Shown here one piece after another: positions 41,401 to 62,987 of a stretch of DNA of 64,000 nt. The notes under the pieces are model-generated. The model was not told where the DNA came from. It made no database searches and saw only the letters and a program-made list of their open reading frames with translations. Position numbers and translations under genes: made by a program. Each line of letters starts with the position of its first letter. Positions within the stretch are counted from its first letter, which is position 1. The stretch lies in IMG/VR virus record IMGVR_UViG_3300045988_121070; one strand, 5' to 3'. Source of the stretch: a virus.

Positions 41401-41890
41401 TTATCGATTTAGAATTAGATATTTACCTTGTATCGAGGATTGGCACAGGCGAGCGTCTGCTTCATAGCCGAAGGCGACGAGGACAGAACCGAAGAATGGG
41501 GAGCCGGTGGTGCCGTCTGGCTGAATGAACCTGATGCGGTGGCGCATGAAGATCAGCGACTTTGCCTTGGGGAAGATGACTTCCTGAAAGAGTAGGTTAT
41601 CAACCTGGTTCTTCAGTAAGGCGATACCATTGTTATGCTCTGCCAACTTCTCAACGAATGGACGCAGTAGGGAGCGGCTATATGGCGGGTTCATAAAGAC
41701 CAGTGCCGAGGAAGGCCATTCCTGAGCAAGCCCGTTTTGCTCCTTATTATACGATAGTGGCGCTATCTGATAGGGGGGGGGTAATTGGCGAACATGGGTC
41801 CAAATCAAATGGCCCCAACTCATCGATAACCCACTTTGGTGTGTACCACTCATCGGAACTTACTACGGGATTGCGCTGTGTCTTGTTCAT
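41401..41890 (-). CDS. Phage Dam-like N6-adenine DNA methyltransferase, split by a C9 tract
   Basis: From ATG 41890: MNKTQRNPVVSSDEWYTPKWVIDELGPFDLDPCSPITPP, then the tract at 41773-41781. The 41401..41853 frame continues PPYQIAPL...LVFMNPPYS. One C fewer joins the two frames. Confidence 0.7.
41773..41781 (-). repeat. Homopolymer: C9 on the coding strand (G9 on plus)
   Basis: Coding-strand context aattaCCCCCCCCCtatc. The frame is broken as sequenced. Confidence 0.9.
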
Positions 41891-41893
41891 TGC

Positions 41894-42115
41894 TTATCTT
41901 GAATTATAAAGTGTGAAAGTATCTGGAATAAAGTGGCAGAAGACCACTTGTTTTTTCTCGTCACAGCCGCCATAAAACGGGCAATCGTACTCCAACCACG
42001 AGCCGACATGAACTAAAGTCGGTCCTATTTTGCAGGTGTCACAAGTAGCCTTCATCCCATGCGGACAGGGAGTCTTACTACTTTTAGATTTCATCTTAAA
42101 CTTTATCTCCTCCAT
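41894..42115 (-). CDS. Small Cys-rich protein
   Basis: 73 aa ORF. Confidence 0.5.
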   Translation of the reverse strand: MEEIKFKMKSKSSKTPCPHGMKATCDTCKIGPTLVHVGSWLEYDCPFYGGCDEKKQVVFCHFIPDTFTLYNSR

Positions 42116-42350
42116 TCTCTTTTACTTCATCAGGATTGTAGGGTTGGCCACAGAAAGGGCAATACTTCGGATAGAGGTTAATGTCCTTTGGGTTCTTCGC
42201 ACGAGAGCCATCCCTTTTGCTGGGATAGTAATAACCAGTAACGACCATACGAGCGGTGCCGTCACTCATCAGCGCATAGTTAGCAAGAGCAGAGTCATTG
42301 AATTTCTCCTTCAGTTGCTTATTCCAGTTGTTAATACAATTACATGCCAT
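42096..42350 (-). CDS. Small hypothetical protein
   Basis: 84 aa ORF with a C-terminal CPFCG. Confidence 0.5.
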   Translation of the reverse strand: MACNCINNWNKQLKEKFNDSALANYALMSDGTARMVVTGYYYPSKRDGSRAKNPKDINLYPKYCPFCGQPYNPDEVKENGGDKV

Positions 42351-42597
42351 AATTTTTGCGTAAAAATTTGTCTAAGGATGCGAGAGAATTTTCTATTATA
42401 ATGATAACGATAGCCAATGCGCCAAAAAGACTGATGAAAGGAAGACAGGCAATCATCCAATCTCTCATATATGAAGAATGGAGGCGCTGACCATTTTTAA
42501 CCAGGCGAGAAATCTTCACAAGCTGGAATACTGATACTATAAGCATCGGTATCAAACAGCCGTAGAAGAGAATATCAAAAAACAAATCTTTCGTCAT
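42340..42597 (-). CDS. Small membrane protein
   Basis: 85 aa, two hydrophobic segments. Confidence 0.5.
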   Translation of the reverse strand: MTKDLFFDILFYGCLIPMLIVSVFQLVKISRLVKNGQRLHSSYMRDWMIACLPFISLFGALAIVIIIIENSLASLDKFLRKNYGM

Positions 42598-43186
42598 TTT
42601 TACTTAGGAGTTTGAAGGTGTAGGCCACGACTGTAGGGTTGCTTTCCCAGGTGCCTTTGCCACAGATACTGTTGAACATGTCGGCGAATGCTTCGCGGGG
42701 GTTACAGTGGACGTAGTGGAAGATATGGACGTGGTACTTACCGTTAGCGAGACGCTTACGTTTGATGTCTATCCAGGTATAGTCGCCCTCTTCGCCCGTT
42801 TCGAGGTTCCGGCATGGAACGTCACCATGAACGATACCCTCACGCATGATGTCGGCATCAGATATATCCTGAAGGAGCTGGTTGCGCTTCTCGATGATTT
42901 CTATACGATGCTGCATCAGTTCTGGACGCACGTAGAGTTTGTTTTCCCAGCCAGGGTGACGGGTAGGGTCTTCACAATCGAGTTCACGTTTTAGGCGATT
43001 GAGGTAGGCTTGTTTCTCTACATCAGGAAGACCGCGATAGATGAAACCGTAGGCTTCGGAAATAGCCAGGACTTCGCCCACGTCATACTGGCGATCTGTA
43101 GTCAGTCGGCGTGTGTTGTCCTTCAGTCCCTCAATGATAAGTTGGGTGAGAGCCTGACGGAAACGGATAGAGCGTAACTTATTCAT
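42575..43186 (-). CDS. ASCH-domain-like protein
   Basis: 203 aa. KDNTRR...VGEVLAI...LQDISDADIMREG resembles the ASCH pattern. Recollection only. Confidence 0.45.
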   Translation of the reverse strand: MNKLRSIRFRQALTQLIIEGLKDNTRRLTTDRQYDVGEVLAISEAYGFIYRGLPDVEKQAYLNRLKRELDCEDPTRHPGWENKLYVRPELMQHRIEIIEKRNQLLQDISDADIMREGIVHGDVPCRNLETGEEGDYTWIDIKRKRLANGKYHVHIFHYVHCNPREAFADMFNSICGKGTWESNPTVVAYTFKLLSKNDERFVF

Positions 43187-43748: not shown

Positions 43749-43994
43749 TTAATTCTTTAATATGAGCCGGAGAGCGAAAAGGGCGTTACCAGCATCGCCT
43801 ACACGGACTACTTCGTTATATACTCGTTCAAGACTTCGAGGATTGACCTCTTTAAACTTGTTCATTTCAGGGACGGTCAGTTTGTGACCTGCAATCGTAG
43901 CGATTTTGAAGATCATGGCGGTGCGGCTGAGACCGTTGCCTGCAAAGGGTGATTTTGCCCCCCCCTGATGCTTGGATGTTTGAAATATATTCAT
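43749..43994 (-). CDS. Small hypothetical protein containing an in-frame G8 tract
   Basis: 81 aa. KHQGGAKSPF is encoded across the tract at 43958-43965. Confidence 0.45.
   Translation of the reverse strand: MNIFQTSKHQGGAKSPFAGNGLSRTAMIFKIATIAGHKLTVPEMNKFKEVNPRSLERVYNEVVRVGDAGNALFALRLILKN
43958..43965 (-). repeat. Homopolymer: G8 on the coding strand
   Basis: Plus strand gattttgCCCCCCCCtgatg. In frame as sequenced. Confidence 0.9.
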
Positions 43995-44413: not shown

Positions 44414-45181
44414 TTAAAATAATGTTTGTTGTGATAATTCTATTTTGATATTCTTCTCAGCCATTGCGAAATACTCAGGATGAATTTCAAAGCCAATGTA
44501 ATGGCTTTTCTCCTTGATAGCTGCTATGGCTGTTGTTCCGCTACCTATGAAAGGGTCGAGAATTACCCCCCCCCGTGGCACGAAAAAATGTATGAGCGTC
44601 TGAGGTAAAAGAAGCGGGAATGCTGCCCGATGCTTACCTTTGTGGTTCTTTCCAATTCTCAACACATTGGATAGTTTACCACGTTCAGCGTTCAATAGAG
44701 GAAACTGGCGGCCTTTACAGTCGTGCTTATCGAAAGCGATGATAAATTCATACTCACAGTTGAGCACTCCTGAGTGCATGGCCGGTTCAGACGATTTCTT
44801 ATCCCAGATAAGGATATCACGGATGCGGTCAGCATAGTGGCCAAAGATTTTCATCAGAGCCACCTTATTACCTGTTATCATCATTATGTTATAGAAGACA
44901 GGTCCATTGCTGACACGTAACATTTCGTCGATACACTGACATTGCCAGTTGAAATAGTCATCCATTGACATTGCATCATTCACACGGTTGTCGTAACGAT
45001 TAGCAGGGAGGCCGGTATAACCAAACGTCTCTCCTTTCGTCCATTTGGTATATTTACCAGAATGGATGCGTAGGCCGAAGTTATAAGGCGGTGAAGTGAT
45101 AACAGCATTTACGCTGTTATCCTCCATCTGCCTCATTCCTTCGAGACAATCCATGTTGTATATGGTGTCAATGTTCATCAT
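44414..45181 (-). CDS. N4-cytosine/N6-adenine DNA methyltransferase (beta class)
   Basis: From ATG 45181: MMNIDTIYNMDCLEGM...VITSPPYNF (motif IV) ... ILDPFIGSGTTAIAA (motif I). The track N-terminal extension to 45358 is an out-of-frame read through VR2. Confidence 0.8.
   Translation of the reverse strand: MMNIDTIYNMDCLEGMRQMEDNSVNAVITSPPYNFGLRIHSGKYTKWTKGETFGYTGLPANRYDNRVNDAMSMDDYFNWQCQCIDEMLRVSNGPVFYNIMMITGNKVALMKIFGHYADRIRDILIWDKKSSEPAMHSGVLNCEYEFIIAFDKHDCKGRQFPLLNAERGKLSNVLRIGKNHKGKHRAAFPLLLPQTLIHFFVPRGGVILDPFIGSGTTAIAAIKEKSHYIGFEIHPEYFAMAEKNIKIELSQQTLF
44566..44574 (-). repeat. Homopolymer: G9 on the coding strand
   Basis: Encodes PRGGV just before motif I. In frame as sequenced. Plus-strand context aattaCCCCCCCCCgtgg. 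Confidence 0.9.
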
Positions 45182-45182: not shown

Positions 45183-46010
45183 TTACTTCTGCTCTTCAGG
45201 AATTGGTTTGAAGACCAGGGCCGACCATAGCGCAGCGAATTGGCGACCAGCGTATTTCGCAAGTTCGCTCGATTTGAAGGCCAGGCGAGCGCCGAAGCAC
45301 GCGTTCGAGCGCGAGAAACCGAGACTCGAGTCCGCAGCCGAAAGACCGCAGCGCGCACCGCTAGCCGCGAGACCCCCGACGATCAGCAGCTGTGCCTTAT
45401 CATCCTCACTCATTTCGTCTATCTCCTTCTGGGTATAGAGGTAGAAGTAAGGATAGTAGCGATATTCATCCTCAGTGAATTGTGGCACCCATCCTTCATT
45501 GAGGGCATAGGTGATGATGCGGAGCTGGATGTAAGCAAGCAGGTCAGGTGTACGTGGCGAATTAAACCAGAGGTCTATCATCAGTTCGTTAGCCAGTTTG
45601 TCGCCAGCCTGAGCACGGCGATTGAGGTCATTGCAAGCATCCTCAAAGGTCTTGATGCGTTCTGTGACGGGGCGGTTGTCTGGAGTTTCTGTTTCATCCG
45701 CAGGTATGATGCAAGACCAATCCTCTGCCAAAATATCCTCCCATGAGGGAATGTAGTAGGTGGCAGAAGCCGGTGTTTTACCGTCGTCTGTGAAGGTAAT
45801 CATAATCACCTGGTCGTGGTAGGATATTTCGCCACTTCCAACGGTGCTAATCTTTGGTTTGATAGATGCTGGCAGGGATGTCATCTTTGGCACCACATCC
45901 TTTGCTATACATTGGGGGATCTGCATGACGATTTCCTGATTGTCATGCCACGTAGAACGGGAGGCATGGCCACCCTTTTTCAGACATTCAATAACTGCTG
46001 GAAAATTCAT
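45183..46010 (-). CDS. DGR target protein 2: DUF2829-like N-terminal domain fused to a VR-bearing C-type-lectin/FGE-like domain
   Basis: From ATG 46010: MNFPAVIECLKKGGHASRSTWHDNQ...ATYYIPSWEDILAEDWSCI. The C-terminal GGLAASGARCGLSAADSSLGFSRSNACFGARLAFK is encoded by VR2. Confidence 0.8.
   Translation of the reverse strand: MNFPAVIECLKKGGHASRSTWHDNQEIVMQIPQCIAKDVVPKMTSLPASIKPKISTVGSGEISYHDQVIMITFTDDGKTPASATYYIPSWEDILAEDWSCIIPADETETPDNRPVTERIKTFEDACNDLNRRAQAGDKLANELMIDLWFNSPRTPDLLAYIQLRIITYALNEGWVPQFTEDEYRYYPYFYLYTQKEIDEMSEDDKAQLLIVGGLAASGARCGLSAADSSLGFSRSNACFGARLAFKSSELAKYAGRQFAALWSALVFKPIPEEQK
45276..45391 (-). repeat. DGR variable repeat 2 (VR2), about 20 kb from the TR
   Basis: Hand alignment to TR 24948-25063 gives 116 nt with 23 differences. 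22 are at coding-strand A of the TR. One is a non-adenine change. Confidence 0.85.
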
Positions 46011-46029
46011 ATTACTTTTGGTTATTAGA

Positions 46030-46049
46030 CCCCGCCGTTCTCGGCGGGG
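46030..46049 (-). repeat. GC hairpin family copy with inverted loop
   Basis: ccccgccgttctcggcgggg followed by catgggtta. Confidence 0.6.
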
Positions 46050-46055
46050 CATGGG

Positions 46056-46886
46056 TTATTGTTTTGTATCGGCGACAGAATCGCCGAGCACACTGTTATG
46101 TAGATCGGGACAGATAGACCAATCACGGCAGAAGCGGCGGATAGACTCTTTCCAAAGGATGCGGAAGTTGTGCTCTTTGGAGAGGCGCTGCACTTCACGG
46201 ATGAAGCGCTCGCACTGGGCGGAGTCGTAGCGTTTCTTGCTGTAAGGAGAGAGTAGGCCAATGCGGAACTCCTGGCAGTCGGAGGCAATGGTGCGGATGA
46301 TTGCCAGTGAGGAAACGAAGTCGATGACCGGCTCCATGCTGGCAAAGGTGCGGAACTGCATCTTTGAGAGATAGATAAGTGCTGTCTGACGCGATACGTT
46401 AGCCGGAGCACCAGGTTCGAGTTCGTCGTGGCCGGTGAGTGTGAAGCCGATGGTGAGGAGGTCACGGTGTGCATAGAGTGTGCCCATTACCCAATCCTCA
46501 CGTACCCACCATGTAGCCTTGGTGAGGATGATGACGGGCACCTGTTGGCTGAAGGCATATTCTATGCAGCTCAGGGTGAGCGTGATTTCCTCACGCAGCA
46601 TCGGGTCTGTTGAGAAAGAAAAGAACAGCCCGCCATCGGCGGTAATCTGGTCACGATATTTATCAAGTTCTTGGCAGAAAAGATGATACGCTTTCTTAGG
46701 ATCACCACCGAGTAGGGCCTTAATCTCTGGCACATCCTTACCGAGAGTATGGCCAAACACACCACGCTTACAGTAGCAGTAGGTACAGGAATGAGAGCAG
46801 CCGTTGTAGAGGTTGCAAGCCCATGTGCTGTATTCTGCAGCAGCACCGTTAGGGCGGTAGATGGCGAGGTTCTTTGTTTTACTCAT
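46056..46886 (-). CDS. Radical SAM domain protein
   Basis: 276 aa. CSHSCTYC fits the CxxxCxxC cluster in NLYNGCSHSCTYCYCK. Confidence 0.75.
   Translation of the reverse strand: MSKTKNLAIYRPNGAAAEYSTWACNLYNGCSHSCTYCYCKRGVFGHTLGKDVPEIKALLGGDPKKAYHLFCQELDKYRDQITADGGLFFSFSTDPMLREEITLTLSCIEYAFSQQVPVIILTKATWWVREDWVMGTLYAHRDLLTIGFTLTGHDELEPGAPANVSRQTALIYLSKMQFRTFASMEPVIDFVSSLAIIRTIASDCQEFRIGLLSPYSKKRYDSAQCERFIREVQRLSKEHNFRILWKESIRRFCRDWSICPDLHNSVLGDSVADTKQ
46071..46085. promoter_or_regulatory. PAL-B variant inside the 3' end of a CDS
   Basis: ggcgacagaatcgcc followed by gagcacactg. Confidence 0.45.
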
Positions 46887-46934: not shown

Positions 46935-47394
46935 TTAACTTTCGGCGGTTTGGCGAGCCTTTTCGCAGACGAAAATCAGTGCTTGTTTGAGGACACCTGT
47001 TGCTGTTTCCCACTGACGTTGCAGTGCGTTGATAGCCACTTTCTTCTCGTGTTTGAGGTCATAGATTTTCTTCTGCATATTGATGTCATTAAGTTGCATC
47101 TGATGATCGAGATTGTGCATTTCCTGACGCAGTGCTAATGCTTTTTCGCGCTCATCGGGTGTGCCACCAGAGGGCAGTTGTGACCGTTTGAGGTCGATAA
47201 GGCAGATGATGCGGTTGCGTTCTACCTGCTGTTCGGTACGGACGTTGAACACGTCATTGTCGCACTTGGTGCGGATCTGCATGATAGCTTCATCACGGTA
47301 GGTATTGACTTTACCAAACCATGCTCGTACTTCTTCCTCGGAGAGCTGTTTCAGGTCTTCCAGGGGGGGGGTAATTTACGAAATTTTGTTCCAT
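46935..47394 (-). CDS. Coiled-coil hypothetical protein, split by a C9 tract near its 5' end
   Basis: From ATG 47394: MEQNFVNYPP, then the tract at 47363-47371. One C fewer continues LEDLKQLSEEEVRAWFGKVNTYRDEAIMQIRTK... into track ORF 46935..47282. Confidence 0.45.
47363..47371 (-). repeat. Homopolymer: C9 on the coding strand (G9 on plus)
   Basis: Coding-strand context aaattaCCCCCCCCCtgg. Confidence 0.9.
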
Positions 47395-48386: not shown

Positions 48387-48393
48387 ATTTTAT

Positions 48394-49386: not shown

Positions 49387-49389
49387 ACC

Positions 49390-49776
49390 TTATTTATTTT
49401 TATAATAGCGGTGGGTTAAAGCCCAGAACCATTCTACGGTGATATTGAGGAACCATGCTCCGAATAAGCCGGTACCAAAGAGCCAGAACGAGCGCCAGAA
49501 CATGAACGAGAGGCCGAAGGCGGTAGCAGCCATCAGCAGCTGTAAGCAGAACTCGGTAAAGTAGTCCTTTGCGAAATAACTGTGTCGCCAGCGCCATTCC
49601 TTTTCGTTGGAGGGGTCTTTGGCGAACTGAATCGTGATGCAGCCCACTGTTGAGAATGCTCCGAGGATGAGTCCGACAATGAATGAAGCACCCTGGATGA
49701 ATGGATGTTGCCATAGGAATATACCGATGATGGCGGAGAGGAATACCCAGTTGAGTAGGATGAGATAATGTTTCAT
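49390..49776 (-). CDS. Membrane protein
   Basis: 128 aa, four hydrophobic segments. Confidence 0.55.
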   Translation of the reverse strand: MKHYLILLNWVFLSAIIGIFLWQHPFIQGASFIVGLILGAFSTVGCITIQFAKDPSNEKEWRWRHSYFAKDYFTEFCLQLLMAATAFGLSFMFWRSFWLFGTGLFGAWFLNITVEWFWALTHRYYKNK

Positions 49777-49804
49777 ATCTAAGATTATATTTGTTATTTT
49801 GGCG

Positions 49805-49812
49805 CAAAATTA
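49805..49812 (-). promoter_or_regulatory. -7 box TAATTTTG
   Basis: Matches TAnnTTTG, 29 nt upstream of ATG 49776, at the head of the replication/modification gene string. Confidence 0.4.
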
Positions 49813-50445: not shown

Positions 50446-50465
50446 CCCAGCCGAGAACGGCTGGG
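50446..50465. repeat. GC hairpin family copy
   Basis: cccagccgagaacggctggg followed by agtggctg, in the non-coding hub. Confidence 0.65.
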
Positions 50466-50573
50466 AGTGGCTGAAGAGTCCTGGCCGCTATGACATAGCG
50501 ACATACAGAACGGGAGCGGGAAAATAATTAGAAAATAGTGGCGAGAAAGTTTGCGTATGTCGCGGAAAATGAT

Positions 50574-50581: not shown

Positions 50582-50587
50582 CACCAT

Positions 50588-52571: not shown

Positions 52572-52578
52572 CATGTGG

Positions 52579-55500: not shown

Positions 55501-58395
55501 GCCACCCGCCACGTTATCGTATTCCGTGAGGCGGTCGGCAGACCATCCGACACGAGGAGCCACCTGAGAGGTAATGTCCTTTTCCTTCATCTGAAGGGCG
55601 ATCTTCGCACGGAGTTGCTTCACCACCTCCTTGTAAGCCTTTGCTACATCATAGGCAGTAGATTTTTCGGTGAGCATCTTCGAGAGATACTGGCCATACT
55701 CCTTGTTAAAGTTACGAATAGCAGCCGCACGTTGACGTGAGCCGTTGGCTGCTTCGTCGATAGCCTTCTTAAAGCGTTTCAGACGGTCATCAGCGATGGC
55801 AAACTCACGGTTGAAGTCAGACATCGTGCTATTGAAGCCCTGCATCCATGTAGTAGCCTTTTGTCCGCTCTTAATGACAGAACCGATAGCAATAGCGAGG
55901 CCCGTCAGAAGCGAGATACAGAGACCGATGACATTCATCTTCTGAGCCGTGTTCAGAGCGTGCCATGCAGCCACAAGTCCCTTAGTCTGGAGCGTGGCCA
56001 ATACCGAAGCCTTACCCATGAGACCGATAGACGATGCCAAACCGATGATAGCCACCGAAGCACCCTTGAAGAGCAATCCCGTAAGAATAGCCGGCAGGAG
56101 TGCGAGGAGTATCTTCAATTCAGCAGCAATCAGTCCGAGGAGGTTTTTCATTATCCACATGGAAGCCTCGTTGGAAGTCATGGACTTTGAGAGGTCGTAC
56201 CATGCCTGGGCCATCTGTTTTACCATATCGACACCCTCTGGGTTGGTGAAAGCCTTTGCCCAGAGGTTATTACCCTTTTCGAGGATAGCGTTAGCAGTGT
56301 CCTGTTTCAGAGCATACTCATTGGTGAGAGACGTTGCCTCTGCGAAAGCCTCGTTAGACTCTTCGACATGCGCACGGACCGTATCGACATTCTTAGACAT
56401 GGTAGCCATGACACCGATAAGGCGCTGACCTTCAGAGCCGAGGTCTTTCCAGATGTTGCCGAGGGCATTCATGTTACCCTTTTCACGCATCTTTTCCATT
56501 ATCTGAAGAATGGCCTCCATTGCCTTACCCTGTTGGAAAAGGTTATTGATTGTGCCCTTCTCCATGTTCAACTGCTGTTCGATGAGATTATGGTTGGTTT
56601 GCAGCGACGTGAAGAGTTTACCGAATGCCGTGGCCGCTACTTCAGGAGCCTGGCCGAGCGCATCGGCAGCAGAGCCGAGTGCCAGCAGTTCTGGCGTAGT
56701 GATGCCCGTGATGCGGGAAAGACCCGTGAGGCGTTTAGCGAAGTCAACGATATGTGTTCCTGATGCAGTAGAAGTGGCCGACAGTTGGTTGATAGCCGAG
56801 CCGACAGACAGCATGGAGCGTTCGACACCCAGTTTGGGGATAAGTCCCATGGTATCGACGAGTTTGGAAATTTGCAAGAGGCTGTCATCGCCGAGGTCGT
56901 CGGAGAGCGCCACCTTTACCTGGTCGGCAGCACGGACGAAAGCCGACATACCTTCGACACCATACTGTCCAAAGCCCATTTTACCACCCTGGTAGGCGAG
57001 GTCGGCGAGATCCTGCACCGTAGAGCGCGTGTTTATCTTAGCCAGGCTTTCAGACAATTCGTTGACCTCCTTGGTGGCGAGGCCCGTCACCTTACGGATG
57101 TCTGCGAGTTGGTCAGAATAAGCCAGGTTGCTTTGCAGCATCCCCTGCAGTTTCTGCTGGGCGATAGAAAACAGTTGGAAGACACCGAAGTACATGGAGA
57201 TATTGCGAAACGTCGTTTTCCATGCAGACCCCTGACGGTTGATAGCGCCGGTGGTACGTTCTATTTCCCCACGTATGGCTGCCAGCTGCTTCTGTTTGTC
57301 GATATACTGCTGTTGGTCGCGGTTGAGTTTAGCCATTTCCGTCTCTAACTGCTTTGCCGCCTTTTGGAGTGTTTCGAGCGGAGCCTTGCGGAGGTTAGCC
57401 GGCTGGAGGAGGTTGCCGATATCAACCAGTTCGTGATCAACACCCGCGAGGATGTTTTGCAGCTGCTTCATCTGTTCGTTGAGTTTCTTGCGGGCCGTAT
57501 CGCCTGTGCCGAGGTTGCTCAACTTACGCTGTATCTCATCGATGGCAGCTTTTATTTCCTTTGGTGAGAACTTTTTAGGATCGAGGATGATATTGTCAGC
57601 CTTCTGCTGGAGTTGGTCGGTGGTGAGTTCTATCTGTTTCTCCTTACCCGCGATAGCATCCAGTTGGTCGTCACACTTCTTCAGTTCAGCATTGATGCGC
57701 TCGATCTCAGCAGCCACGTTGCCGGAAGCGGGGAGGATGCCACCTTTGCCCAACTGGTCACGATAACTGGCGAGGTTGGCACGAGCAGAGCGGAGCGCAT
57801 CAGCAGAAGCCCCACCACCACTGATTGTAGCGACAGCGCGGCGAGCCTGTTCGTTTTGCAGTTGATGAAGGATATTGACCTGCGACTGATAGGCGCTGCT
57901 GGTTTTCTGTGTAGAAGCCACCAACTGCTTCTGCTGATTGATGGCGCGTTGCAACCAGGAATCCGTCTGTGTGGAGAGTTCGCCCATGTGCTTTTTGATG
58001 TTCAGCATTTCGCCCTGCATGACCTTGATTTGGTCGGTGATAGCCTTATATTTCTGGCGCAGTTCTTCGAGTTTAGGGCTACTCTCGCTGGTGCGTGACA
58101 TTTCCTTTTTGACCTGACGAAGCGCCTGGTTCAGTTGAGACAGCGACGCATTAGAGAGGTTGGTAATGACCTTCTCCACCTTTTTCATGTCCGCCTCCTG
58201 CTGTTTGATGAGCGCACGGAGGTCGGCCATTTCCTTTTGCAGTTTCTGGGCACGTTGTGCGCCCGTTGCTGTGGAAGTGTTGATGGCATTATACGCCTTT
58301 TCCAGGCGCGACAGTTCGTTGCGCATGGCTTTGACGGCTGCTACTGGTTGTGCGGAGTCCGCACTGATCTTGATGTATATCTGTTTATCGGCCAT
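52579..58395 (-). CDS. Tail tape measure protein
   Basis: 1938 aa. Coiled-coil N-terminus. The core region LADIRKVTGLATKEVNELS...VDFAKRLTG...AATAFGKLF is typical of the TP901-type tape measure core. Hydrophobic segments in the middle. Confidence 0.85.
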   Translation of the reverse strand: MADKQIYIKISADSAQPVAAVKAMRNELSRLEKAYNAINTSTATGAQRAQKLQKEMADLRALIKQQEADMKKVEKVITNLSNASLSQLNQALRQVKKEMSRTSESSPKLEELRQKYKAITDQIKVMQGEMLNIKKHMGELSTQTDSWLQRAINQQKQLVASTQKTSSAYQSQVNILHQLQNEQARRAVATISGGGASADALRSARANLASYRDQLGKGGILPASGNVAAEIERINAELKKCDDQLDAIAGKEKQIELTTDQLQQKADNIILDPKKFSPKEIKAAIDEIQRKLSNLGTGDTARKKLNEQMKQLQNILAGVDHELVDIGNLLQPANLRKAPLETLQKAAKQLETEMAKLNRDQQQYIDKQKQLAAIRGEIERTTGAINRQGSAWKTTFRNISMYFGVFQLFSIAQQKLQGMLQSNLAYSDQLADIRKVTGLATKEVNELSESLAKINTRSTVQDLADLAYQGGKMGFGQYGVEGMSAFVRAADQVKVALSDDLGDDSLLQISKLVDTMGLIPKLGVERSMLSVGSAINQLSATSTASGTHIVDFAKRLTGLSRITGITTPELLALGSAADALGQAPEVAATAFGKLFTSLQTNHNLIEQQLNMEKGTINNLFQQGKAMEAILQIMEKMREKGNMNALGNIWKDLGSEGQRLIGVMATMSKNVDTVRAHVEESNEAFAEATSLTNEYALKQDTANAILEKGNNLWAKAFTNPEGVDMVKQMAQAWYDLSKSMTSNEASMWIMKNLLGLIAAELKILLALLPAILTGLLFKGASVAIIGLASSIGLMGKASVLATLQTKGLVAAWHALNTAQKMNVIGLCISLLTGLAIAIGSVIKSGQKATTWMQGFNSTMSDFNREFAIADDRLKRFKKAIDEAANGSRQRAAAIRNFNKEYGQYLSKMLTEKSTAYDVAKAYKEVVKQLRAKIALQMKEKDITSQVAPRVGWSADRLTEYDNVAGGSPYNGTWLKAYVDDMQKAGKSVEEINKDLARKLGVNGEIAADAYKSRSSKSPTEWFDVHGYVRDMRMNSGPESTLTPNEVRANNTRALTQAERMLYAATRYATQAYSATNAMNRVNKKWKPFEDDLVTATEDESPGALDNDAPDKEAERRRKAEEAARRKALRQEMREEQGKAQAIVDNVKNYYERQIAAITEMATKTGMDSELQKKLVDGMTIRMNNALANVRQAIAGTENDWAQFRQSMLNDLYEPLSADGTNQSTQLLDNIIHNDVEKLKDMITTLSKELGQNGSVLLDQIWRKATENELKNANQQNKAYQDRQKVLLEKNYTGKVNLDYENQMEQFGVAELTSEQIAQMMGWSQKGNNEAIQQFIDDRTAQWQKAFTATRENIVELLSVDANSEDAPDKVLTILFGKEYKSYLAGTGLSSLLNMSADQFKVFYQKLIEYSDAYTDAQKKAYDEAKRRADFVFNNNPTIQSIDKSTQQLSTINSDTQRFESDKNVGQQMGMSWNMDSDPEILRYRLLAERARLYYEDMARLREQDKISEQQLTDAKRQMMEAQSEMADSVARKFQERVSLLQNFSEPLNTFAEGVGESLGNMIYDTEQSDVKFKDLLKDMLKSYVKMSLQLIAQDLTRRVTKQLYYRQEEADETMHQATMLQIQQLYQTLMLTAQATGDAARLTQHSTSNATELAEEAGATTGKVGLGIAGGAAKIIGTLGWWGIPLIGVITALLMGLLSWAIGLAFGGDESGGADAATPNVKLATGMLTYDSGNVQSVSGGSSAGSPSPSGYSPSATPASSGSPAGYGGDRTPVLGTDGYVYQARQVPQLQTGLVTSPIATMVNGQPSLVGERGPEMVIGRETTAAMQMARPDLLAAIVKFDKNYSNGHAYRTYDEGNLSDFLGTDGTTTPDGSPSDNTITKEDIDGLRSTLSEFTAVMLAIKRNGLHVNKYGRGGITQESQDGANFMRRNSGDRLWKG
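52770..52787 (-). repeat. GC hairpin family copy inside the tape measure gene (different stem)
   Basis: ccgacggagaaccgtcgg followed by gagtggtgg. Encodes PDGSPSD. Confidence 0.6.
53102..53120 (-). repeat. GC hairpin family copy inside the tape measure gene
   Basis: ccagcgggcgaaccgctgg. Encodes SSGSPAG. Confidence 0.6.
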
Positions 58396-58407
58396 AGGAG
58401 GTAGATA

Positions 58408-58932
58408 TTAGAATTGGAACACGAGTGGTGGCAGGTCTTCAATATCACGGAACACCTCTACGGAGAGTTCGCGTCCGTAGAAGTCTTCGTAATAGCGCTG
58501 CATACGAGAGGCGACATGACGTGCCTCCATCATTATTGAGGGTCGGCTTGTTTCGCCCATAACGGCGAGCCACTGGCGCACATAGCGGCGGTTGTGGCGA
58601 GCCTTGCGGTCGCGGCGTACCACGTCGAGCGGTCGGCCACCGACAGTACCCATATCGACAAAGCGGAGGTAGTCACGGAAACCGAGGCTGATTGCTTCGT
58701 GGCCAGGGGTGGCATCGATGCGCGAGGTGAACGAGCGAGCACCTTTGCCGGTGGCATACCATCCGCCATGGTCTTTGCGGTACTCGTTGACCTTACGGAA
58801 GCCAGGGTAGATTTCCGTTGGGAAGACGTGCTGTGTCTGCATGTTCGCCTGGAGTGCTTGCACGGCATCCATGGCAAAGCGGCGCAGAACCACGTTCGGG
58901 CGACGCATTGGTTTTTCGAGTTGTGCTGCCAT
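58408..58932 (-). CDS. Hypothetical protein upstream of the tape measure gene
   Basis: 174 aa ORF, first gene after the promoter module at 58951. Confidence 0.6.
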   Translation of the reverse strand: MAAQLEKPMRRPNVVLRRFAMDAVQALQANMQTQHVFPTEIYPGFRKVNEYRKDHGGWYATGKGARSFTSRIDATPGHEAISLGFRDYLRFVDMGTVGGRPLDVVRRDRKARHNRRYVRQWLAVMGETSRPSIMMEARHVASRMQRYYEDFYGRELSVEVFRDIEDLPPLVFQF

Positions 58933-59034: not shown

Positions 59035-59060
59035 AAAAAACCGCTGGCAGAACCAGCGGG
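59035..59060 (-). terminator. Intrinsic terminator closing the cassette array
   Basis: On the minus strand, cccgctggttctgccagcgg is followed by tttttt, directly after the C12 stop. Confidence 0.7.
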
Positions 59061-59064: not shown

Positions 59065-59307
59065 CTAAAAGAAGTATTCGATAAGGAGGACGGTTTTGGG
59101 GTAGTGAGCGAGAGAGAGGATGTCTTCAGGCAGCTGCATGGCATCGTAGCGGGTGTTTAGGGTGCAAGCGACACCTCCTGATGCTACGTTGACGGGGACT
59201 ATTTGCCCCCCCCCCCTAAACAGCCTTGGAGGTGCGGAGGTAGTTTGGGAAAGCGGGAGAGCTGTCATGCTATGACAGCATACGGAACGACTTTTCTTAT
59301 AGGTCAT
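59065..59307 (-). CDS. Cassette C12: TRD-like mini-ORF, G11 tract, in frame
   Basis: MTYKK, then an in-frame PAL-A variant, then ...PPRLFRGGGQIVPVNVASGGVACTLNTRYDAMQ...KTVLLIEYFF stop. Tract at 59206-59216. Confidence 0.5.
   Translation of the reverse strand: MTYKKSRSVCCHSMTALPLSQTTSAPPRLFRGGGQIVPVNVASGGVACTLNTRYDAMQLPEDILSLAHYPKTVLLIEYFF
59261..59288 (-). repeat. PAL-A variant inside cassette C12
   Basis: gctgtcatgctatgacagcatacggaac. Confidence 0.55.
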
Positions 59308-59550
59308 ATTCAATAAATACACATTGGGATGTTTCGCCGGCCATTAGAGCAGAAGCGACACGGCCATCCTCCTTGACACGAGCACGGCGGAGTTTGGAGG
59401 TAGGGTAAGCCATATCGAAGACCCCATTGGGGAGGCATTCGATATATCCGCTTTCGGTGGCCTGGCGGACTTGGAGCACGATTTGCCCCCCCTATTGGCG
59501 ATGGTAAGGAACGGGCGACGCAGTTCATAGTGATGGACGTTAGAACTCAT
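59297..59550 (-). CDS. Cassette C11: TRD-like mini-ORF, G7 tract, out of frame
   Basis: From ATG 59550: MSSNVHHYELRRPFLTIANRGG, then the tract at 59486-59492. One extra G gives RGGQIVLQVRQATESGYIE...RVASALMAGETSQCVFIEYDL stop. Confidence 0.5.
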
Positions 59551-59715
59551 ATTCAATCAAGACATAAGGAGTGGTGTTATACATGCCTGTATCGGAATCT
59601 TTGCCAATACCCCCCCTGAAAACGAGGTAATGGTGTTGCAGATCTGCTTCAAGTTGTAACGGAGAACCAGACCTTTCGTATCACGAATCCAGCCGATGAA
59701 GTTATAGGTTGTCAT
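59540..59715 (-). CDS. Cassette C10: TRD-like mini-ORF, G7 tract, out of frame
   Basis: From ATG 59715: MTTYNFIGWIRDTKGLVLRYNLKQICNTITSFSGG, then the tract at 59610-59616. One extra G gives GIGKDSDTGMYNTTPYVLIEYEF stop. Confidence 0.5.
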
Positions 59716-59848
59716 ATTCTATCAGGAGGCAATGAGGACATTTATAATCAGTAGCACGAAGTGCCGGAGAGACCAAAAGCCATTTGCCCCCCCCTGACTT
59801 CCATTCAAAAGCGTGGGATAAAGGATGAACGCCTACCTTATAAATCAT
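59702..59848 (-). CDS. Cassette C9: TRD-like mini-ORF, G8 tract, in frame
   Basis: MIYKVGVHPLSHAFEWKSGGGKWLLVSPALRATDYKCPHCLLIEYDNL stop. SPALRATDYK resembles the SPTLTARDYK motif of C5-MTase TRDs. Tract at 59787-59794. Confidence 0.55.
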   Translation of the reverse strand: MIYKVGVHPLSHAFEWKSGGGKWLLVSPALRATDYKCPHCLLIEYDNL

Positions 59849-59991
59849 ATTCTATCAGGATATACCCCCCCCCCATTTGCGGCCAACACCGTTTGGACGA
59901 TGCCGGCAGTACCTTGAACATTACCATCAAAACCATTACGGAAGGTATCGTAATATAGGTTCCCAATACGAAGGATGTTGCTATAAATCAT
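59838..59991 (-). CDS. Cassette C8: TRD-like mini-ORF, G10 tract, out of frame
   Basis: From ATG 59991: MIYSNILRIGNLYYDTFRNGFDGNVQGTAGIVQTVLAANGGG, then the tract at 59865-59874. One G fewer gives YILIEYDL stop. Confidence 0.5.
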
Positions 59992-60282
59992 ATTCGATAA
60001 TTACATTATTGACGTGAGCGGTGATGATTGTAGCAGAGGGGTTACGAAAATAATTACAGACGAGTTCGGGCACCCCCCCATCTTAGCATCCTGACGGTAG
60101 AAACGGAGGTCGCCATTCGGGAGCCAGTGAGCAGCGATGATATCACGGCGAGAAAGACCAAGCCGAGAACGGCTGGGAGTGGTGGCGGAGGAACCAGCGG
60201 GGGAACCGCTGGACGCTGTGGAATTGGGGGCTGCGATAGTATCGCAGCATACGGGACAATCTACAATTCTCTTTCTATCCAT
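59981..60282 (-). CDS. Cassette C7: TRD-like mini-ORF with an in-frame PAL-A plus two hairpins, G7 tract, out of frame
   Basis: MDRKRIVD, then a 35-codon insert, then SRRDIIAAHWLPNGDLRFYRQDAKMGG, then the tract at 60073-60079. One extra G gives VPELVCNYFRNPSATIITAHVNNVIIEYDL stop. Confidence 0.5.
60158..60212 (-). repeat. Two GC hairpin family copies inside cassette C7
   Basis: ccaagccgagaacggctgg at 60158-60176 and ccagcgggggaaccgctgg at 60194-60212. Confidence 0.65.
60230..60257 (-). repeat. PAL-A copy inside cassette C7
   Basis: gctgcgatagtatcgcagcatacgggac. Confidence 0.7.
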
Positions 60283-60520
60283 ACGAGGTTATCTTTTTGC
60301 ACGGAGGTGATGGTGTTTGTGACTTGGGCGGAACCGAGTTCGATAACTTGGTGAAAGTTGCGGTCAGCATGAGCACCACGGAATGAGAGGCAGTCGAGGT
60401 CACGATTAACCTGCGAACATATACGGACAGAAGCGGCACGGCTGTCTGGGTCTCGGTCGTAGAGGTAGGTCATGGTTTGCCCCCCCTACCTCGGCTTGCT
60501 GAGATACGGACTTTGGCCAT
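60261..60520 (-). CDS. Cassette C6: TRD-like mini-ORF, G7 tract, out of frame
   Basis: From ATG 60520: MAKVRISASRGRGG, then the tract at 60480-60486. One extra G gives QTMTYLYDRDPDSRAASVRI...AQVTNTITSVQKDNLVWIEREL stop. The distal part also has its own ATG at 60473. Confidence 0.5.
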
Positions 60521-60542
60521 GTCTGCGGACGGTTCAGTATCT

Positions 60543-60731
60543 TTAATCAAGAGCATATTCTACTAATAAGAGGTTATCTTTCTGAATGCCAGTGATAGTG
60601 TTAGAGCAGCCATCGGTTGCAGGGAGCAAAAAACGGTCGGAGAAACGGCAATGCCCCCCCCTATCTCCGTAGATACGGCGCACGGCTTTTGCGTGAGCGG
60701 TGCGGACAGCACGGAGGATAGAAGCCCCACC
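60543..60731 (-). CDS. Cassette C5: TRD-like segment with no start codon of its own, G8 tract, in frame
   Basis: GGASILRAVRTAHAKAVRRIYGDRGGHCRFSDRFLLPATDGCSNTITGIQKDNLLLVEYALD stop. Its frame stays open back through both hairpins into the core gene (track ORF 60543..60866). Tract at 60654-60661. Confidence 0.5.
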   Translation of the reverse strand, partial: GGASILRAVRTAHAKAVRRIYGDRGGHCRFSDRFLLPATDGCSNTITGIQKDNLLLVEYALD

Positions 60732-60779
60732 GAAAACGGCGGGGAGTGACGGCTTAGACCCGCTGGGAGAACCAGCGGG
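60725..60779 (-). repeat. Two GC hairpin family copies between the MTase core stop and cassette C5
   Basis: ccccaccgaaaacggcgggg at 60725-60744 and cccgctgggagaaccagcggg at 60759-60779. Confidence 0.7.
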
Positions 60780-60783
60780 CACA

Positions 60784-62151
60784 CTAACCTTTGGCACGGA
60801 TGGCTGCGATTTCTTCATCAGAGAGTTTGTGATCGGTGACGGTGTAGTAAATCTTAGCGGCAGCATCCGTCTCGTTTTTGGAGAGGAACTTTATCACGCT
60901 GTCCGGCTTCAGGAAGAACTTTTCACTAACCTCCTCTTCGAGAATGTCAGCGATGCAGGTGGTGAGTTCAAAGGGACGCGGGAACTCATACTGCGTATCG
61001 CCGAGGATATCCTGACGGATGGAGATCATATAGACCCGTTCGCGGTTCTGAGCTACGCCATAGTGTTTGCTGTTCAGAATGCCAAACTTCGTTTTCTTCT
61101 CACGTTTCTCTTTGCCCCAGGGGTAAGGGAATGACGGTGCGAGGAAGTTGACATAGCCATGTTTCTCCAGTAGGGCGCACCATTCTTTGAAGTCGGGCAT
61201 GTTGACGCTGTTAATGAGGGCAGAGACATTTTCCTGAAGGAGGATTTTCGGGCGCATCTGTTCAACAGCCTTTTCGGTGTACCAAAGGACTGCAGAGCGG
61301 GTGTCAGAGCCTTTTTTGATGCCCGCACGTTTTCCCGCCTGACTGATGGACTGACAGGGCGTGGAGTAAGTCAAGAAATCGATGTCAGCATCCGAGAGGT
61401 CGCTCCAGTCACATTTGGTCATGTCGCCCCTATTGAGGGAGGCATACTGCGGGAAGAGCAAGTTATGAGCAACCACGGCAGGCTGTTCATTGATTGGCCT
61501 TTTGCTTTCGGGGTCGAACTCAGCCCATGCCACGAGTTCATAGGCGAAATCAGGATAACGCTCACGGAGCATGTCAAAGGCTATGCACTGGGAGTCATAG
61601 CCAGAGCAAAGCGTAACCACCTTCAGAGGCTGTTCGCAGAAATTGCGAGACATCTGGAAAGTGGGTAGCGCAAACATATCCTGCACTTCACCAGGTATGC
61701 GGCGGTCGGTGGGGAATAAAAAAGCCTCGTAGATATACATGAGGACATCGCAGACGATTGAATTGCCAGCGAGCTTGTAGTGGTTGGAGTTGGAGATTAT
61801 CTGCACGGGGCCAAAACGCTCTTCGGTTTTGGCGGCCTTGATTTTTTCGTAAGCAAGGGTGTAGTTCTGACGGAGGAGTTCTATTTCCTCGGCATCATCA
61901 TCCTCTTCATCCCCAGCGACGGAATCACTGGGCACAGTATCTGGAGCATCTGCAGGTGCTTCGTTTTCTTCATCTGAGGGAGGTGTTTCGAGGCTTTCCA
62001 AAGAATCGCGGAAGGCTTCTTCTACTTCTTTCATTGTTGCCGAGGGTTCCAAACCGAACACGCTTAACTCATTATCGACATCAACGAAAGCGGTGTATGA
62101 CTTTTGTTCAGTAGCCATCAACTGAGAAATCTGGCGTTCAGGAACGCCCAT
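60784..62151 (-). CDS. DNA (cytosine-5) methyltransferase catalytic core, circularly permuted (motif X precedes motif I)
   Basis: YKLAGNSIVCDVL (X), VTLCSGYDSQ (I), TYSTPCQSIS (IV), ILLQENVSAL (VI), GVAQNRERVY (VIII). As sequenced the ORF begins at MGVPE, in the middle of motif IX. Confidence 0.85.
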   Translation of the reverse strand: MGVPERQISQLMATEQKSYTAFVDVDNELSVFGLEPSATMKEVEEAFRDSLESLETPPSDEENEAPADAPDTVPSDSVAGDEEDDDAEEIELLRQNYTLAYEKIKAAKTEERFGPVQIISNSNHYKLAGNSIVCDVLMYIYEAFLFPTDRRIPGEVQDMFALPTFQMSRNFCEQPLKVVTLCSGYDSQCIAFDMLRERYPDFAYELVAWAEFDPESKRPINEQPAVVAHNLLFPQYASLNRGDMTKCDWSDLSDADIDFLTYSTPCQSISQAGKRAGIKKGSDTRSAVLWYTEKAVEQMRPKILLQENVSALINSVNMPDFKEWCALLEKHGYVNFLAPSFPYPWGKEKREKKTKFGILNSKHYGVAQNRERVYMISIRQDILGDTQYEFPRPFELTTCIADILEEEVSEKFFLKPDSVIKFLSKNETDAAAKIYYTVTDHKLSDEEIAAIRAKG

Positions 62152-62155
62152 TAGC

Positions 62156-62465
62156 CTATAGCATTCGGGGGGGGGTAAGTTTTCGGATGTCGAAGTACCT
62201 CACGGGGTGCTTCGGATCCTTTTTGCCCTGGAGGTCAGGGTGGTTGTCGGGATAAATTTTTGCAATCATACGCTCTTTATGTTTAATATCAAATCTTTCT
62301 TCACAAACAAAATAATGATTACGGGCAGAGATACCCGCCAGAATCGTTACAGCGATGCCATGATGCGACCGCTGATTATAGGTGTCGAGCATTTCGCCGT
62401 GAAAGTTCGGTCGCCATTGCCCCCCCCCTAATCATGGCATTCAGCCGAGAATTAAAATGGTTCAT
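62156..62465 (-). CDS. Cassette C4: TRD-like segment plus the first half of motif IX, cut by two 9-nt tracts
   Basis: From ATG 62465: MNHFNSRLNAMIRGG, then G9 at 62420-62428. One G fewer gives QWRPNFHGEMLDTYNQRSHHGIAVTILAG...YFDIRKLTPP, then coding-strand C9 at 62167-62175. One C fewer gives ECYRLMGVPERQ, continuous with the core. Confidence 0.6.
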
Positions 62466-62650
62466 AAGTCATATTCTATTAAAACGACAGTCATTGGGAA
62501 GTGTGCAAGCGTCAGGATATTCGTAGGTCCGACAGCATCGTAACGAGTGGTAAGGGTAGCAGCGCAGCCGTCGGCTGTGACATTGACAGGAGCGATTTGC
62601 CCCCCCCTGGTAGTGCGGAATGCACCGATGTTTGTTATCTTACAGATCAT
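62462..62650 (-). CDS. Cassette C3: TRD-like mini-ORF, G8 tract, in frame
   Basis: MICKITNIGAFRTTRGGQIAPVNVTADGCAATLTTRYDAVGPTNILTLAHFPMTVVLIEYDL stop. Tract at 62600-62607. Confidence 0.55.
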   Translation of the reverse strand: MICKITNIGAFRTTRGGQIAPVNVTADGCAATLTTRYDAVGPTNILTLAHFPMTVVLIEYDL

Positions 62651-62849
62651 ATTCAATCAATACGCCAGTGGCACCACGAGTGGTTTTTAGAAGAAAATTA
62701 GCGACACTACTTTTCTGATACTGAGCTTTGATGGTTCGACATACCCCCCCCTGATAAGCGTTAATAAGCCCCAGCCGAGAACGGCTGGGAGTGGTGTTTT
62801 TTTGAGCTGCGATGGTATCGCAGCATACGGGACACTTTTCATAGGTCAT
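62640..62849 (-). CDS. Cassette C2: TRD-like mini-ORF with an in-frame PAL-A plus hairpin, G8 tract, in frame
   Basis: MTYEK, then a 23-codon insert (CPVCCDTIAAQKNTTPSRSRLGL), then INAYQGGVCRTIKAQYQKSSVANFLLKTTRGATGVLIEYDL stop. Tract at 62744-62751. Confidence 0.55.
   Translation of the reverse strand: MTYEKCPVCCDTIAAQKNTTPSRSRLGLINAYQGGVCRTIKAQYQKSSVANFLLKTTRGATGVLIEYDL
62770..62789 (-). repeat. GC hairpin family copy inside cassette C2
   Basis: cccagccgagaacggctggg followed by agtggtg. Confidence 0.7.
62806..62833 (-). repeat. PAL-A copy inside cassette C2
   Basis: gctgcgatggtatcgcagcatacgggac. Confidence 0.7.
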
Positions 62850-62987
62850 ACTCGATGAGAATTTTGGGTTTGTCTGTATCGTGGCCATTGCCCCCCCTGC
62901 GAGACAGAGGGCGATACCTTTTGGGGACACCACTATGCCGTTTTGGGAAGGGCTATAACGACCGAGGATGATAGGACGTGTGACCAT
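62839..62987 (-). CDS. Cassette C1: TRD-like mini-ORF, G7 tract, out of frame
   Basis: From ATG 62987: MVTRPIILGRYSPSQNGIVVSPKGIALCLAGG, then the tract at 62891-62897. One extra G gives GNGHDTDKPKILIEYDL stop. As sequenced it reads through into the C2 frame (track ORF 62640..62987). Confidence 0.5.

Follow-up and report, generated by a model that had tools for sequence, protein, structure and literature searches.

Hypermutable G/C tracts in the DNA-modification genes of a phage as probable contingency loci, with a candidate two-component C5-cytosine methylase

The viral sequence IMGVR_UViG_3300045988_121070 from IMG/VR was analysed here as one stretch of 64 kb (the window; 50.8% G+C, with every gene on the minus strand), and it raises the question of why a phage genome should carry 17 long runs of G or C, most of them inside genes for DNA methylases or inside mini-genes for what appear to be target-recognition domains (TRDs) of such enzymes. 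We consider it probable, at roughly 0.8, that these tracts are simple-sequence contingency loci, which switch a methylation toolkit ON and OFF and produce combinatorial methylation patterns that hedge against host restriction. Each is a run of at least 7 nucleotides (nt) within an open reading frame (ORF), its length toggles the frame of an otherwise intact gene, and its length polymorphism exceeds other mutation.

A scripted scan of the whole window found exactly 17 G/C runs of 7 nt or more (7–11 nt) and no others. This reproduces, with the same lengths, a list drawn up by eye in an earlier sequence-only reading of this DNA, and it found no comparable tracts in the structural genes. The run-length distribution is bimodal, falling from 22 runs of length 5 to two of length 6 (both of them G6, with no C6 run in the window) and then rising to 5, 5 and 5 at lengths 7, 8 and 9, with a single run each at 10 and 11; A/T runs decay geometrically and show no excess. 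Compared with 200 dinucleotide-preserving shuffles, 17 runs of at least 7 nt were observed against 3.6 ± 1.7 expected, 12 of at least 8 nt against 0.75 ± 0.78, and seven of at least 9 nt against 0.14, which bears out the earlier claim that the clustering is not random. Outside the two blocks that hold the tracts (51.9 kb) the picture is the opposite, with two runs of 6 nt or more against 12.7 expected, the lowest count among the shuffles being 5. The same scarcity was seen for runs of at least 5 nt in positions 1–41000 plus 48000–58900, where 17 were counted and 54 expected. G/C homopolymers are purged genome-wide and the long ones are concentrated at two places. Their scarcity outside the methylation blocks hints that the replication system of this phage is genuinely prone to slippage at such runs. 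All 17 tracts lie within ORFs on the minus strand. The sequence-only reading had confined them to two DNA-modification blocks; of the 17, 15 are in methylase genes or TRD mini-genes, and the two at 43958 and 47363 are in small genes of unknown function.

The genes and their tracts are as follows, with ON and OFF referring to the frame in the window, and with U and D denoting mini-genes upstream and downstream of the gene for the methylase core.

Block 1:
41401..41890, minus strand: Dam-like N6-adenine methylase gene; C9 tract (coding strand) at 41773..41781, in-frame length C8, OFF.
43749..43994, minus strand: 81-amino-acid (aa) gene of unknown function; G8 tract at 43958..43965, codons 10–12, in frame (ON).
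44414..45181/45358, minus strand: beta-class N6/N4 methylase; G9 tract at 44566..44574, coding R-G-G directly upstream of motif I (VILDPFIGSGTT), ON.
46935..47394, minus strand: 152-aa gene of unknown function (MEQNFVNYPP..); C9 tract at 47363..47371, codons 8–10, in-frame length C8, OFF.

Block 2 (59,065–62,987):
62839..62987, minus strand: U1 TRD mini-gene, 49 aa at G8; G7 tract at 62891–62897, OFF.
62640..62858, minus strand: U2 TRD mini-gene; G8 tract at 62744–62751, ON.
62462..62650, minus strand: U3 TRD mini-gene, 62 aa; G8 tract at 62600–62607, ON.
60784..62465, minus strand: U4-core, predicted circularly permuted C5-cytosine methylase, 559 aa when both tracts are 8 nt; PF00145, E 6e-40.
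62420–62428, minus strand: U4-core tract 1, at the start of U4; G9, OFF.
62167–62175, minus strand: U4-core tract 2, at the junction of TRD and motif IX; C9, OFF.
60543..60866, minus strand: D1 TRD mini-gene; G8 tract at 60654–60661, ON; it starts within the 3' end of the core gene.
60261..60556, minus strand: D2 TRD mini-gene, 98 aa; G7 tract at 60480–60486, OFF.
59981..60282, minus strand: D3 TRD mini-gene, 100 aa; G7 tract at 60073–60079, OFF.
59838..59991, minus strand: D4 TRD mini-gene, 50 aa; G10 tract at 59865–59874, in-frame length G9, OFF.
59702..59848, minus strand: D5 TRD mini-gene, 48 aa; G8 tract at 59787–59794, ON.
59540..59715, minus strand: D6 TRD mini-gene, 58 aa; G7 tract at 59610–59616, OFF.
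59297..59550, minus strand: D7 TRD mini-gene, 84 aa; G7 tract at 59486–59492, OFF.
59065..59307, minus strand: D8 TRD mini-gene, 80 aa; G11 tract (8+3) at 59206–59216, ON; a terminator hairpin follows at 59041–59059.

Changing the run length alone restores complete ORFs at all sites, both in the window and in its relatives, and block 2 then becomes a compact array of overlapping ORFs. The in-frame length is 8 at 14 of the 17 sites, 9 at D4 and the N6/N4 methylase, and 11 at D8. Seven tracts are ON in the window (U2, U3, D1, D5, D8, the N6/N4 methylase and the 81-aa gene); the other ten are OFF, each missing the frame by a single base, and belong to U1, U4, the core junction, D2, D3, D4, D6, D7, the Dam-like methylase and the 152-aa gene. 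The Dam-like protein (PF05869) matches PHROG 111 at E 7e-39 once corrected to C8; its frame breaks at ..DLDPCSPITPP|YQIAP.., and the relative L010 has C8 at this site. The N6/N4 methylase (PF01555, E 3e-29) owes its G9 in the window to a G8 tract plus an A>G change in the flank and remains in frame. In other contigs with the same context its tract ranges from 7 to 10 nt, and there G8 alone is in frame. The 81-aa gene found no match in Pfam or PHROG, and the 152-aa gene likewise has no family match.

That tract length is indeed the character that changes was seen when the window was compared with the IMG/VR relatives L001 and L002 (98% identical cores) and L003–L005 (68%), with the block 1 relatives L008–L016, and with independent metagenomes. 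As the sequence-only reading had proposed to check, the tracts keep their positions and vary in length. L001–L005 share the architecture of the window and have 12–13 tracts each at homologous positions with differing lengths, and in L008–L016 all four block 1 tracts are kept at 7–11 nt; the 81-aa gene, for example, has G8 in L008, G10 in L010 and G7 in L016, and the 152-aa gene occurs in relatives with C7, C8, C9, C10 and C11. In a length matrix of 6–9 near-identical genomes every site was found in at least two length states, within 6–11 nt. Between the window and L001 there are 94 substitutions over 4,055 nt and seven indels, six of which lie in tracts and one in the T run of a terminator, and between the window and L002 every frameshifting coding indel sits in a tract. 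The contigs L017 and L018, from two sister samples, differ over 4,509 nt by no substitution and by six indels, all of them ±1 in G tracts; we regard this comparison as decisive. L018 and a third contig, L019, are identical across 3,639 nt including the tracts. Taken together, these comparisons indicate that tract length evolves far faster than any other character and that the length calls are reproducible. A/T runs of 7–8 nt show no such indels.

The cassettes that are out of frame nevertheless look like maintained genes. Between the window and the 68% relatives, synonymous divergence (dS) of the cassettes exceeds 1 or is not computable, nonsynonymous divergence (dN) is 0.13–0.41 and dN/dS is 0.05–0.43. 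The cassettes with an OFF tract in the window fall within these values too, and apart from the tract they are intact in all genomes. Judged by this substitution pattern, the cassettes are maintained genes under purifying selection, not pseudogenes. Of the 1,081 glycine codons in the window 52 (4.8%) are GGG, which makes it the least used of the four, so that persistence of the runs at saturated synonymous divergence argues for selection on the homopolymer itself. A distant relative, L045 (Logan SRR31618311, positions 1900–3712; 44.7% G+C), encodes an N6/N4 methylase, stand-alone D7-like and U3-like TRD ORFs and a permuted core, and there is no homopolymer in its methylation locus; Gly-Gly is written as GGA GGT or GGT GGA and the junction as ACG CCA TTT. 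Since L045 codes for the same motifs in this way, the tracts are an added layer in the clade of the window and not a by-product of coding.

What the tracts in block 2 would switch depends on the nature of the core and of the ORFs around it. In U4-core the order of elements is an N-terminal TRD (U4), motif IX (RKLTPPECYRLMGVPE), motif X (GNSIV), a linker, and motifs I (LCSGYDS), IV (TPCQSIS), VI (ENV) and VIII (QNRERV). With motifs IX and X ahead of I–VIII and the TRD at the N-terminus, U4-core is predicted to be a C5-cytosine methylase of the permuted type H order. An intact ORF of 559 aa was found in L017, and homologues are 434–630 aa long, reflecting differing states of the junction. Three small ORFs lie upstream of the core and eight downstream, each of 48–107 aa with one G run apiece, and two further tracts belong to the core gene itself, a G run in the fused U4 domain and a C run at the junction of U4 and motif IX. 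The small ORFs end in (L/V)(L/I)IEY(D/E)x-stop, and the ATG of each overlaps the end of the preceding ORF. The last cassette keeps the IEY although no downstream start depends on it, which makes IEY a feature of the protein. The cassettes are not tandem TRDs in one polypeptide, being split by stop codons and overlapping ATGs that are kept in relatives and in stand-alone homologues. Stop-codon recoding was considered and ruled out, as all three stops end cassettes.

The assignment of the small ORFs was approached with chimeras, in which the core was re-ordered to the canonical order, a cassette was placed between motifs VIII and IX, and the result was aligned to M.HhaI. The chimera with U1 aligns to M.HhaI residues 55–124, 150–288 and 294–314, with 150–288 unbroken. 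U1 (IILGRYSPSQNGIVVSPKGIALCLAGGGNGHDTDKPKILIEYDL) matches the recognition domain of M.HhaI (GIVGKGGQGERIYSTRGIAITLSAYGGGIFAKTGGYLVNGKT) at residues ~226–271, and U1 ends exactly where RKLHPREC (motif IX) begins. A profile of the D7 family, searched against 1.84 billion representative proteins, gave 570 hits, many of them short stand-alone ORFs and many others proteins of 200–860 aa with an internal match; the ten long hits that were sampled all proved to be PF00145 methylases, matched within their variable region ahead of motif IX. Homologues of D7 in the in-frame form are stand-alone ORFs of 82–85 aa in 52 protein clusters. The G runs of the cassettes code for one of two glycine motifs, either a (R/K)GGQ loop, whose Gln we take to be Gln237 of HhaI, or a GGG after a T-L/I-T motif, and the remaining cassettes were assigned as TRDs through the shared GGQ, T(L/I)T and GGG motifs and their boundaries. 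Pfam gave no hits on ten cassettes, as expected of variable TRDs, and a profile search of the PDB with the D7 family gave chance hits only. On these grounds the mini-genes of block 2 are each predicted to encode one TRD, and their stand-alone status is argued for by their own starts and stops, the shared IEY end, the shuffled order, the D7 homologues and the TRD-less core of L045, which starts about 13 residues ahead of motif IX. Relatives keep the stop/ATG overlap, their cassettes are reshuffled across the two arrays, and the U2 slot holds a different TRD type in L001, L002 and L017–L019.

Some further observations concern the core and cassettes. At G7, the N-terminal 30 codons of U1 read through a 14-codon linker into U2 and form a U1N–U2 fusion ORF of 115 aa (62640–62987), so that the OFF state of one cassette may yield a hybrid product rather than a plain truncation. 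In some relatives (L005 at ~7356, and the proteins P0079 and P0170) the C-terminus of the core passes through a G tract into a TRD (..DEEIRRARGE-GG-QIGG..IIIEYEL) or ends ..VRQGGHIAG; the core is thus predicted to be able to carry a fused TRD at either end, each gated by a tract. Within the core of L045 a stop codon separates ..FPEPIAL from LEDVLEEEV.., possibly as one more natural split or else through an error of assembly. Short perfect hairpins of three families occur after the core and inside some cassettes, in their N-terminal portions, with sequences GCTG(CGAT/TCAT)-loop-(ATCG/ATGA)CAGC, showing compensatory change, CCCGCTGG-N5-CCAGCGGG and CCCAGCCG-TTCT-CGGCTGGG. They lie in three groups (62806–62824, 60230–60248 and 59261–59279; 60759–60779, 60194–60212 and 59041–59059; 62770–62789), are absent at the same places in relatives and are followed by a T run at the last copy only; they look like in-frame palindromic insertions or elements for RNA processing or termination.

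These data can be assembled into a model. Slipped-strand mispairing during replication would add or remove a base in a tract far more often than ordinary mutation occurs, and as only one length class, usually 8 nt, would hold the frame, each gene would flip reversibly between ON and OFF. The set switched in this way would comprise the Dam-like methylase, the N6/N4 methylase, the C5 core, a dozen recognition domains and the two genes of unknown function, with the tract at the junction of TRD and motif IX acting as a master switch of the C5 core. A single catalytic large-domain protein would pair with whichever TRD mini-proteins are in frame, and the phage population would become a mosaic of methylation specificities, in principle of up to 2^17 genotypes. 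The benefit would be bet-hedging between protection from restriction-modification and exposure to the methylation-dependent restriction of varied hosts; phage anti-restriction is well established, and this is the basis on which such a benefit is proposed. Both the assembly of the mini-proteins with the core in trans and the anti-restriction benefit are steps that we infer. The most specific form of the model is a two-component C5 methylase, in which one permuted core would be programmed in trans by at least a dozen interchangeable TRD-only mini-proteins, each of them, and the junction, having gained in this clade its own G/C8 switch together with the G(n)YA flank described below, to give bet-hedging that is combinatorial, heritable and reversible; for this form we see the odds as even.

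A second feature of the tracts belongs to their surroundings. Among 98 unique long tracts from the window and relatives (loci L001–L044), read on the G strand, the first base after the run is a pyrimidine in 97% and the second is A in 97% (TA 56, CA 37), as against YA after 22% of G3–4 runs; ahead of the run stands an A in 61% of tracts and a T in 27%, together 88%. The flank is seen in all three codon phases (CAG GGG GGG GTA, GGG GGG GGG TAT, GGG GGG GGT ATT, AGG GGG GGG CAA), and where unrelated genes have C runs on the coding strand it appears as TTA-C(n). Because it occurs in all codon phases and on the opposite strand, this G(n)YA flank is a feature at the nucleotide level. Cassette paralogy and codon usage explain it in part but not in full, and a mechanistic constraint is possible. 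The sequence-only reading had noted shared flanks, which proved stronger than it stated, and had offered either a common origin or a dedicated slippage mechanism in explanation. One shared origin for all tracts is ruled out by their presence in at least five unrelated gene types, by the two distinct glycine motifs of the TRDs and the Pro-Pro C runs, and by the architecture of L045, which has no homopolymers. As for the second proposal, no dedicated slippage machinery was found in the analysis and nothing points to one, ordinary replication slippage on a G8 run being sufficient.

Several points weigh against the contingency-locus model. Tract lengths were taken from consensus assemblies and some may be assembly noise, and heterogeneity within populations and switching rates are read from such assemblies too. 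With the junction at C9, the sole start codon for the core in the window is the Met in RLMGVPE and part of motif IX is lost, so that the core may be inactive in this genome and C5 methylation possibly off altogether. The U3 and D6 chimeras failed to align through the TRD of M.HhaI, and AlphaFold2 confidence was low, with a pLDDT of 50.8 for the D7 cassette and of 52.5 for a 568-aa homologue of U4-core, in which the TRD region reached about 30. The model also leaves the G(n)YA flank unexplained. Finally, G7, an OFF length, is the commonest state, being found for D2 in four of six near-identical genomes and for D7 in three of three genomes not selected for an in-frame D7, and this predominance could mean that the tracts are decoded by frameshifting or transcriptional slippage.

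Programmed recoding of this kind, in which stuttering of RNA polymerase or −1/+1 ribosomal frameshifting makes full-length protein from OFF alleles and tunes expression, is in our view unlikely. It would make sense of the abundance of G7, which needs an extra base or a −1 shift, and of the purifying selection on OFF cassettes, and G GGG GGN formally fits the X XXY YYZ pattern. However, tracts deviate in both directions (G7, G9, G10, C9, C10, C11), and a given site can be ON in one contig and OFF in another whose DNA is otherwise the same. Downstream of the tracts no conserved RNA structure of a stimulatory kind was seen (Rfam on the window was empty), and reversible switching at the DNA level already accounts for intact OFF alleles. 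Some slippage during expression may coexist with DNA switching.

An equally small chance is given to the idea that the mini-genes are silent donor cassettes, recombined into the one expressed, core-fused slot in the manner of pilS/pilE or of hsdS shufflons, with the G run and the conserved ATTGAATATGA end as recombination boundaries. Conserved ends, the differing order among relatives and the variable U2 slot in near-identical genomes would all be expected, as would the L005 cassette fused in frame to the core C-terminus and the N6/N4 tract, which has a conserved half downstream and, upstream, any of at least six unrelated ones. Yet the slot in question, the fused N-terminal one, holds the U4 family in every relative examined. 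Each cassette also retains an ATG that overlaps the stop of its predecessor, and the N-terminal segment ahead of its run is intact and under selection; the IEY of the last cassette is a protein feature. All copies are direct repeats, so that exchange would delete and not invert; no recombinase gene was found in the locus; and L045 combines stand-alone TRDs with a core that has no TRD.

It is very unlikely that the length differences are homopolymer sequencing or assembly errors and that all genes are in frame at G8 with nothing switching. Homopolymers are error-prone, most deviations are ±1 around 8, and the data are consensus contigs. Against this, ±1 differences occur at six of 12 tracts between contigs with zero substitutions, and a third contig reproduces one of these two contigs exactly; A/T runs of 7–8 nt lack such indels, lengths span 6–11 including +2 and +3, and the doubling of the rarest glycine codon in every cassette and the purge of G/C runs elsewhere would be left unaccounted for. 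A polyG read artefact of two-colour sequencing was ruled out separately, as the tracts are embedded in conserved coding context across many datasets. We can dismiss as extremely improbable the view that the runs are inherited coding for conserved Gly-Gly or Pro-Pro motifs of paralogous cassettes, with no selection on mutability, for while the cassettes are paralogous and most tracts do encode R/Q/S-G-G-(Q/V) or a GGG after 'TL', as present in canonical TRDs such as that of M.HhaI, the chance of GGGGGG at a Gly-Gly is about 0.2% given the codon usage, 76 of the 77 Gly-Gly dipeptides in long ORFs avoid it (the other being the tract of the N6/N4 methylase), unrelated genes carry tracts, the runs outlast saturated synonymous change, ten of 17 frames are broken in the window, and L045 spells the same motifs otherwise.

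In the N6/N4 methylase, G(n)TAATTCTCGACCCTTT, coding GG-VILDPF of motif I, occurs in identical form after at least six unrelated upstream sequences (window 44566–44574; L027, L034, L035, L037, L041, L042 and L044). The joining of one conserved downstream half to at least six unrelated upstream halves points to module exchange at or near tracts over evolutionary time; the N6/N4 tract would mark a module junction, where recognition halves seem to have been swapped. Beside the block 1 methylases lie a protein with a Tad2-like (Thoeris anti-defence 2) domain (45183–46052), a weak radical-SAM match (46056–46886) and a ThyX-like thymidylate synthase (47454–48386), and from these matches the surroundings point to a wider neighbourhood of anti-defence and nucleotide modification. 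Scans of the window with Rfam and for tRNAs found nothing. A BT4734-like primase domain points weakly to a host among the Bacteroidota; no prophage or host was found on scanning genome contigs with the core, and a megablast of positions 40–64 kb against cultured phages gave no match.

Phase-variable methylases and the phasevarions that they control are familiar from bacteria, where Type III mod and Type I hsdS or hsdM genes vary in Neisseria, Haemophilus, Helicobacter and Moraxella. As in the window, simple-sequence repeats in methylase or specificity genes randomly switch methylation specificity; the bacterial genes, however, are parts of chromosomal restriction-modification (R-M) systems whose adenine methylation regulates genes, whereas those described here are orphan methylases of a phage, including a C5 enzyme with modules that would be switched singly. 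In the genome of the phage these methylases are flanked by replication genes and by the gene for the tape measure, and their surroundings showed no restriction gene; on this basis they do not constitute a phasevarion. A core that serves several TRDs has reportedly been described by Trautner, Noyer-Weidner and colleagues for the multispecific C5 methylases of the Bacillus phages SPR, phi3T, rho11s and H2, some with silent 'pseudo-domains'. There too a catalytic core encoded by a phage is combined with TRDs that each have their own target, but these are constitutively expressed as a tandem series between motifs VIII and IX of a single polypeptide, whereas in the window they are separate ORFs on both sides of a permuted core and individually switched.

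The order TRD-IX-X-I..VIII of U4-core is that of the type H permuted C5 methylases M.BssHII, M.Alw26I, M2.Eco31I, M.Esp3I and M2.BsaI (PMC5944983). Unlike the window system, these known enzymes have a single TRD, belong to Type II or IIS R-M systems and are without extra TRD genes or homopolymers. An active C5 methylase can also be formed from separate polypeptides that roughly correspond to the large and small domains, since M.AquI is naturally bisected and engineered large-domain and TRD fragments of permuted M.MpeI and M.SssI complement each other (PMC5944983). The beta subunit of M.AquI contains part of the variable region plus motifs IX–X and has one partner, whereas the small subunit in the window would be a TRD alone, drawn from a library of a dozen members. 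As the permuted core is a contiguous large domain, the small domain is roughly the TRD, and bisected or engineered fragment pairs complement, a two-component enzyme is plausible.

Among phages, contingency loci have been reported in T2/T4 (PMC12633550), and hypermutable polyG tracts in the receptor-binding protein genes of Campylobacter Fletchervirus (Sorensen et al. 2021, as cited in PMC12633550 and PMC12823448). As far as the citing accounts describe them, the Fletchervirus tracts resemble those of the window in being G runs of 7–11 nt within ORFs, where a change in length switches the frame and creates phenotypic subpopulations; they alter host recognition, whereas here the tracts belong to methylases and TRD mini-genes, a single locus holds many more of them, and they have the G(n)YA flank. 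The Bordetella phage BPP-1 is cited as having both a diversity-generating retroelement (DGR) and a polyG tract in a methylase gene (as cited in PMC12633550), and the window likewise has a DGR acting on a tail gene beside G runs in methylase genes. In the account given there BPP-1 has one tract in one gene and no TRD array, unlike the many tracts and the array of the window. The window DGR spans 23225–26629 on the minus strand, with the reverse transcriptase at 23225–24571 (PHROG 1423, E 4e-63), the template repeat at 24938–25063 and the variable repeat at 25423–25548, at the 3' end of the tail gene 25376–26629; the repeats are 126 nt long and 85% identical, of their 19 mismatches 17 coincide with adenines of the template, and the element targets the tail protein at its C-terminus.

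PolyG switches, phase-variable methylases, and multispecific, permuted and split C5 methylases are each already known separately. Full-text literature searches found no description of an array of stand-alone TRD genes around a permuted core, nor of arrays of polyG tracts in phage methylases, nor of a phage with 15 switches in its methylation genes. A design in the style of Type I specificity subunits was not found described for C5 enzymes in the literature searched, and the two-component architecture could prove categorically new.

Phages face many restriction systems, and self-methylation both protects them and exposes them to other defences. If the proposed mechanism is correct, random one-base switching of more than a dozen specificities would give a broad and shifting host range with gene content unchanged, and bet-hedging through contingency loci would extend from bacterial surface and restriction genes to viral epigenetics. 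Should the TRD genes act in trans, they would represent a natural plug-in system for cytosine-methylation specificity, useful for the engineering of targeted methylases. The pattern of tract lengths could in addition act as a fast-evolving barcode for phage lineages in metagenomes.

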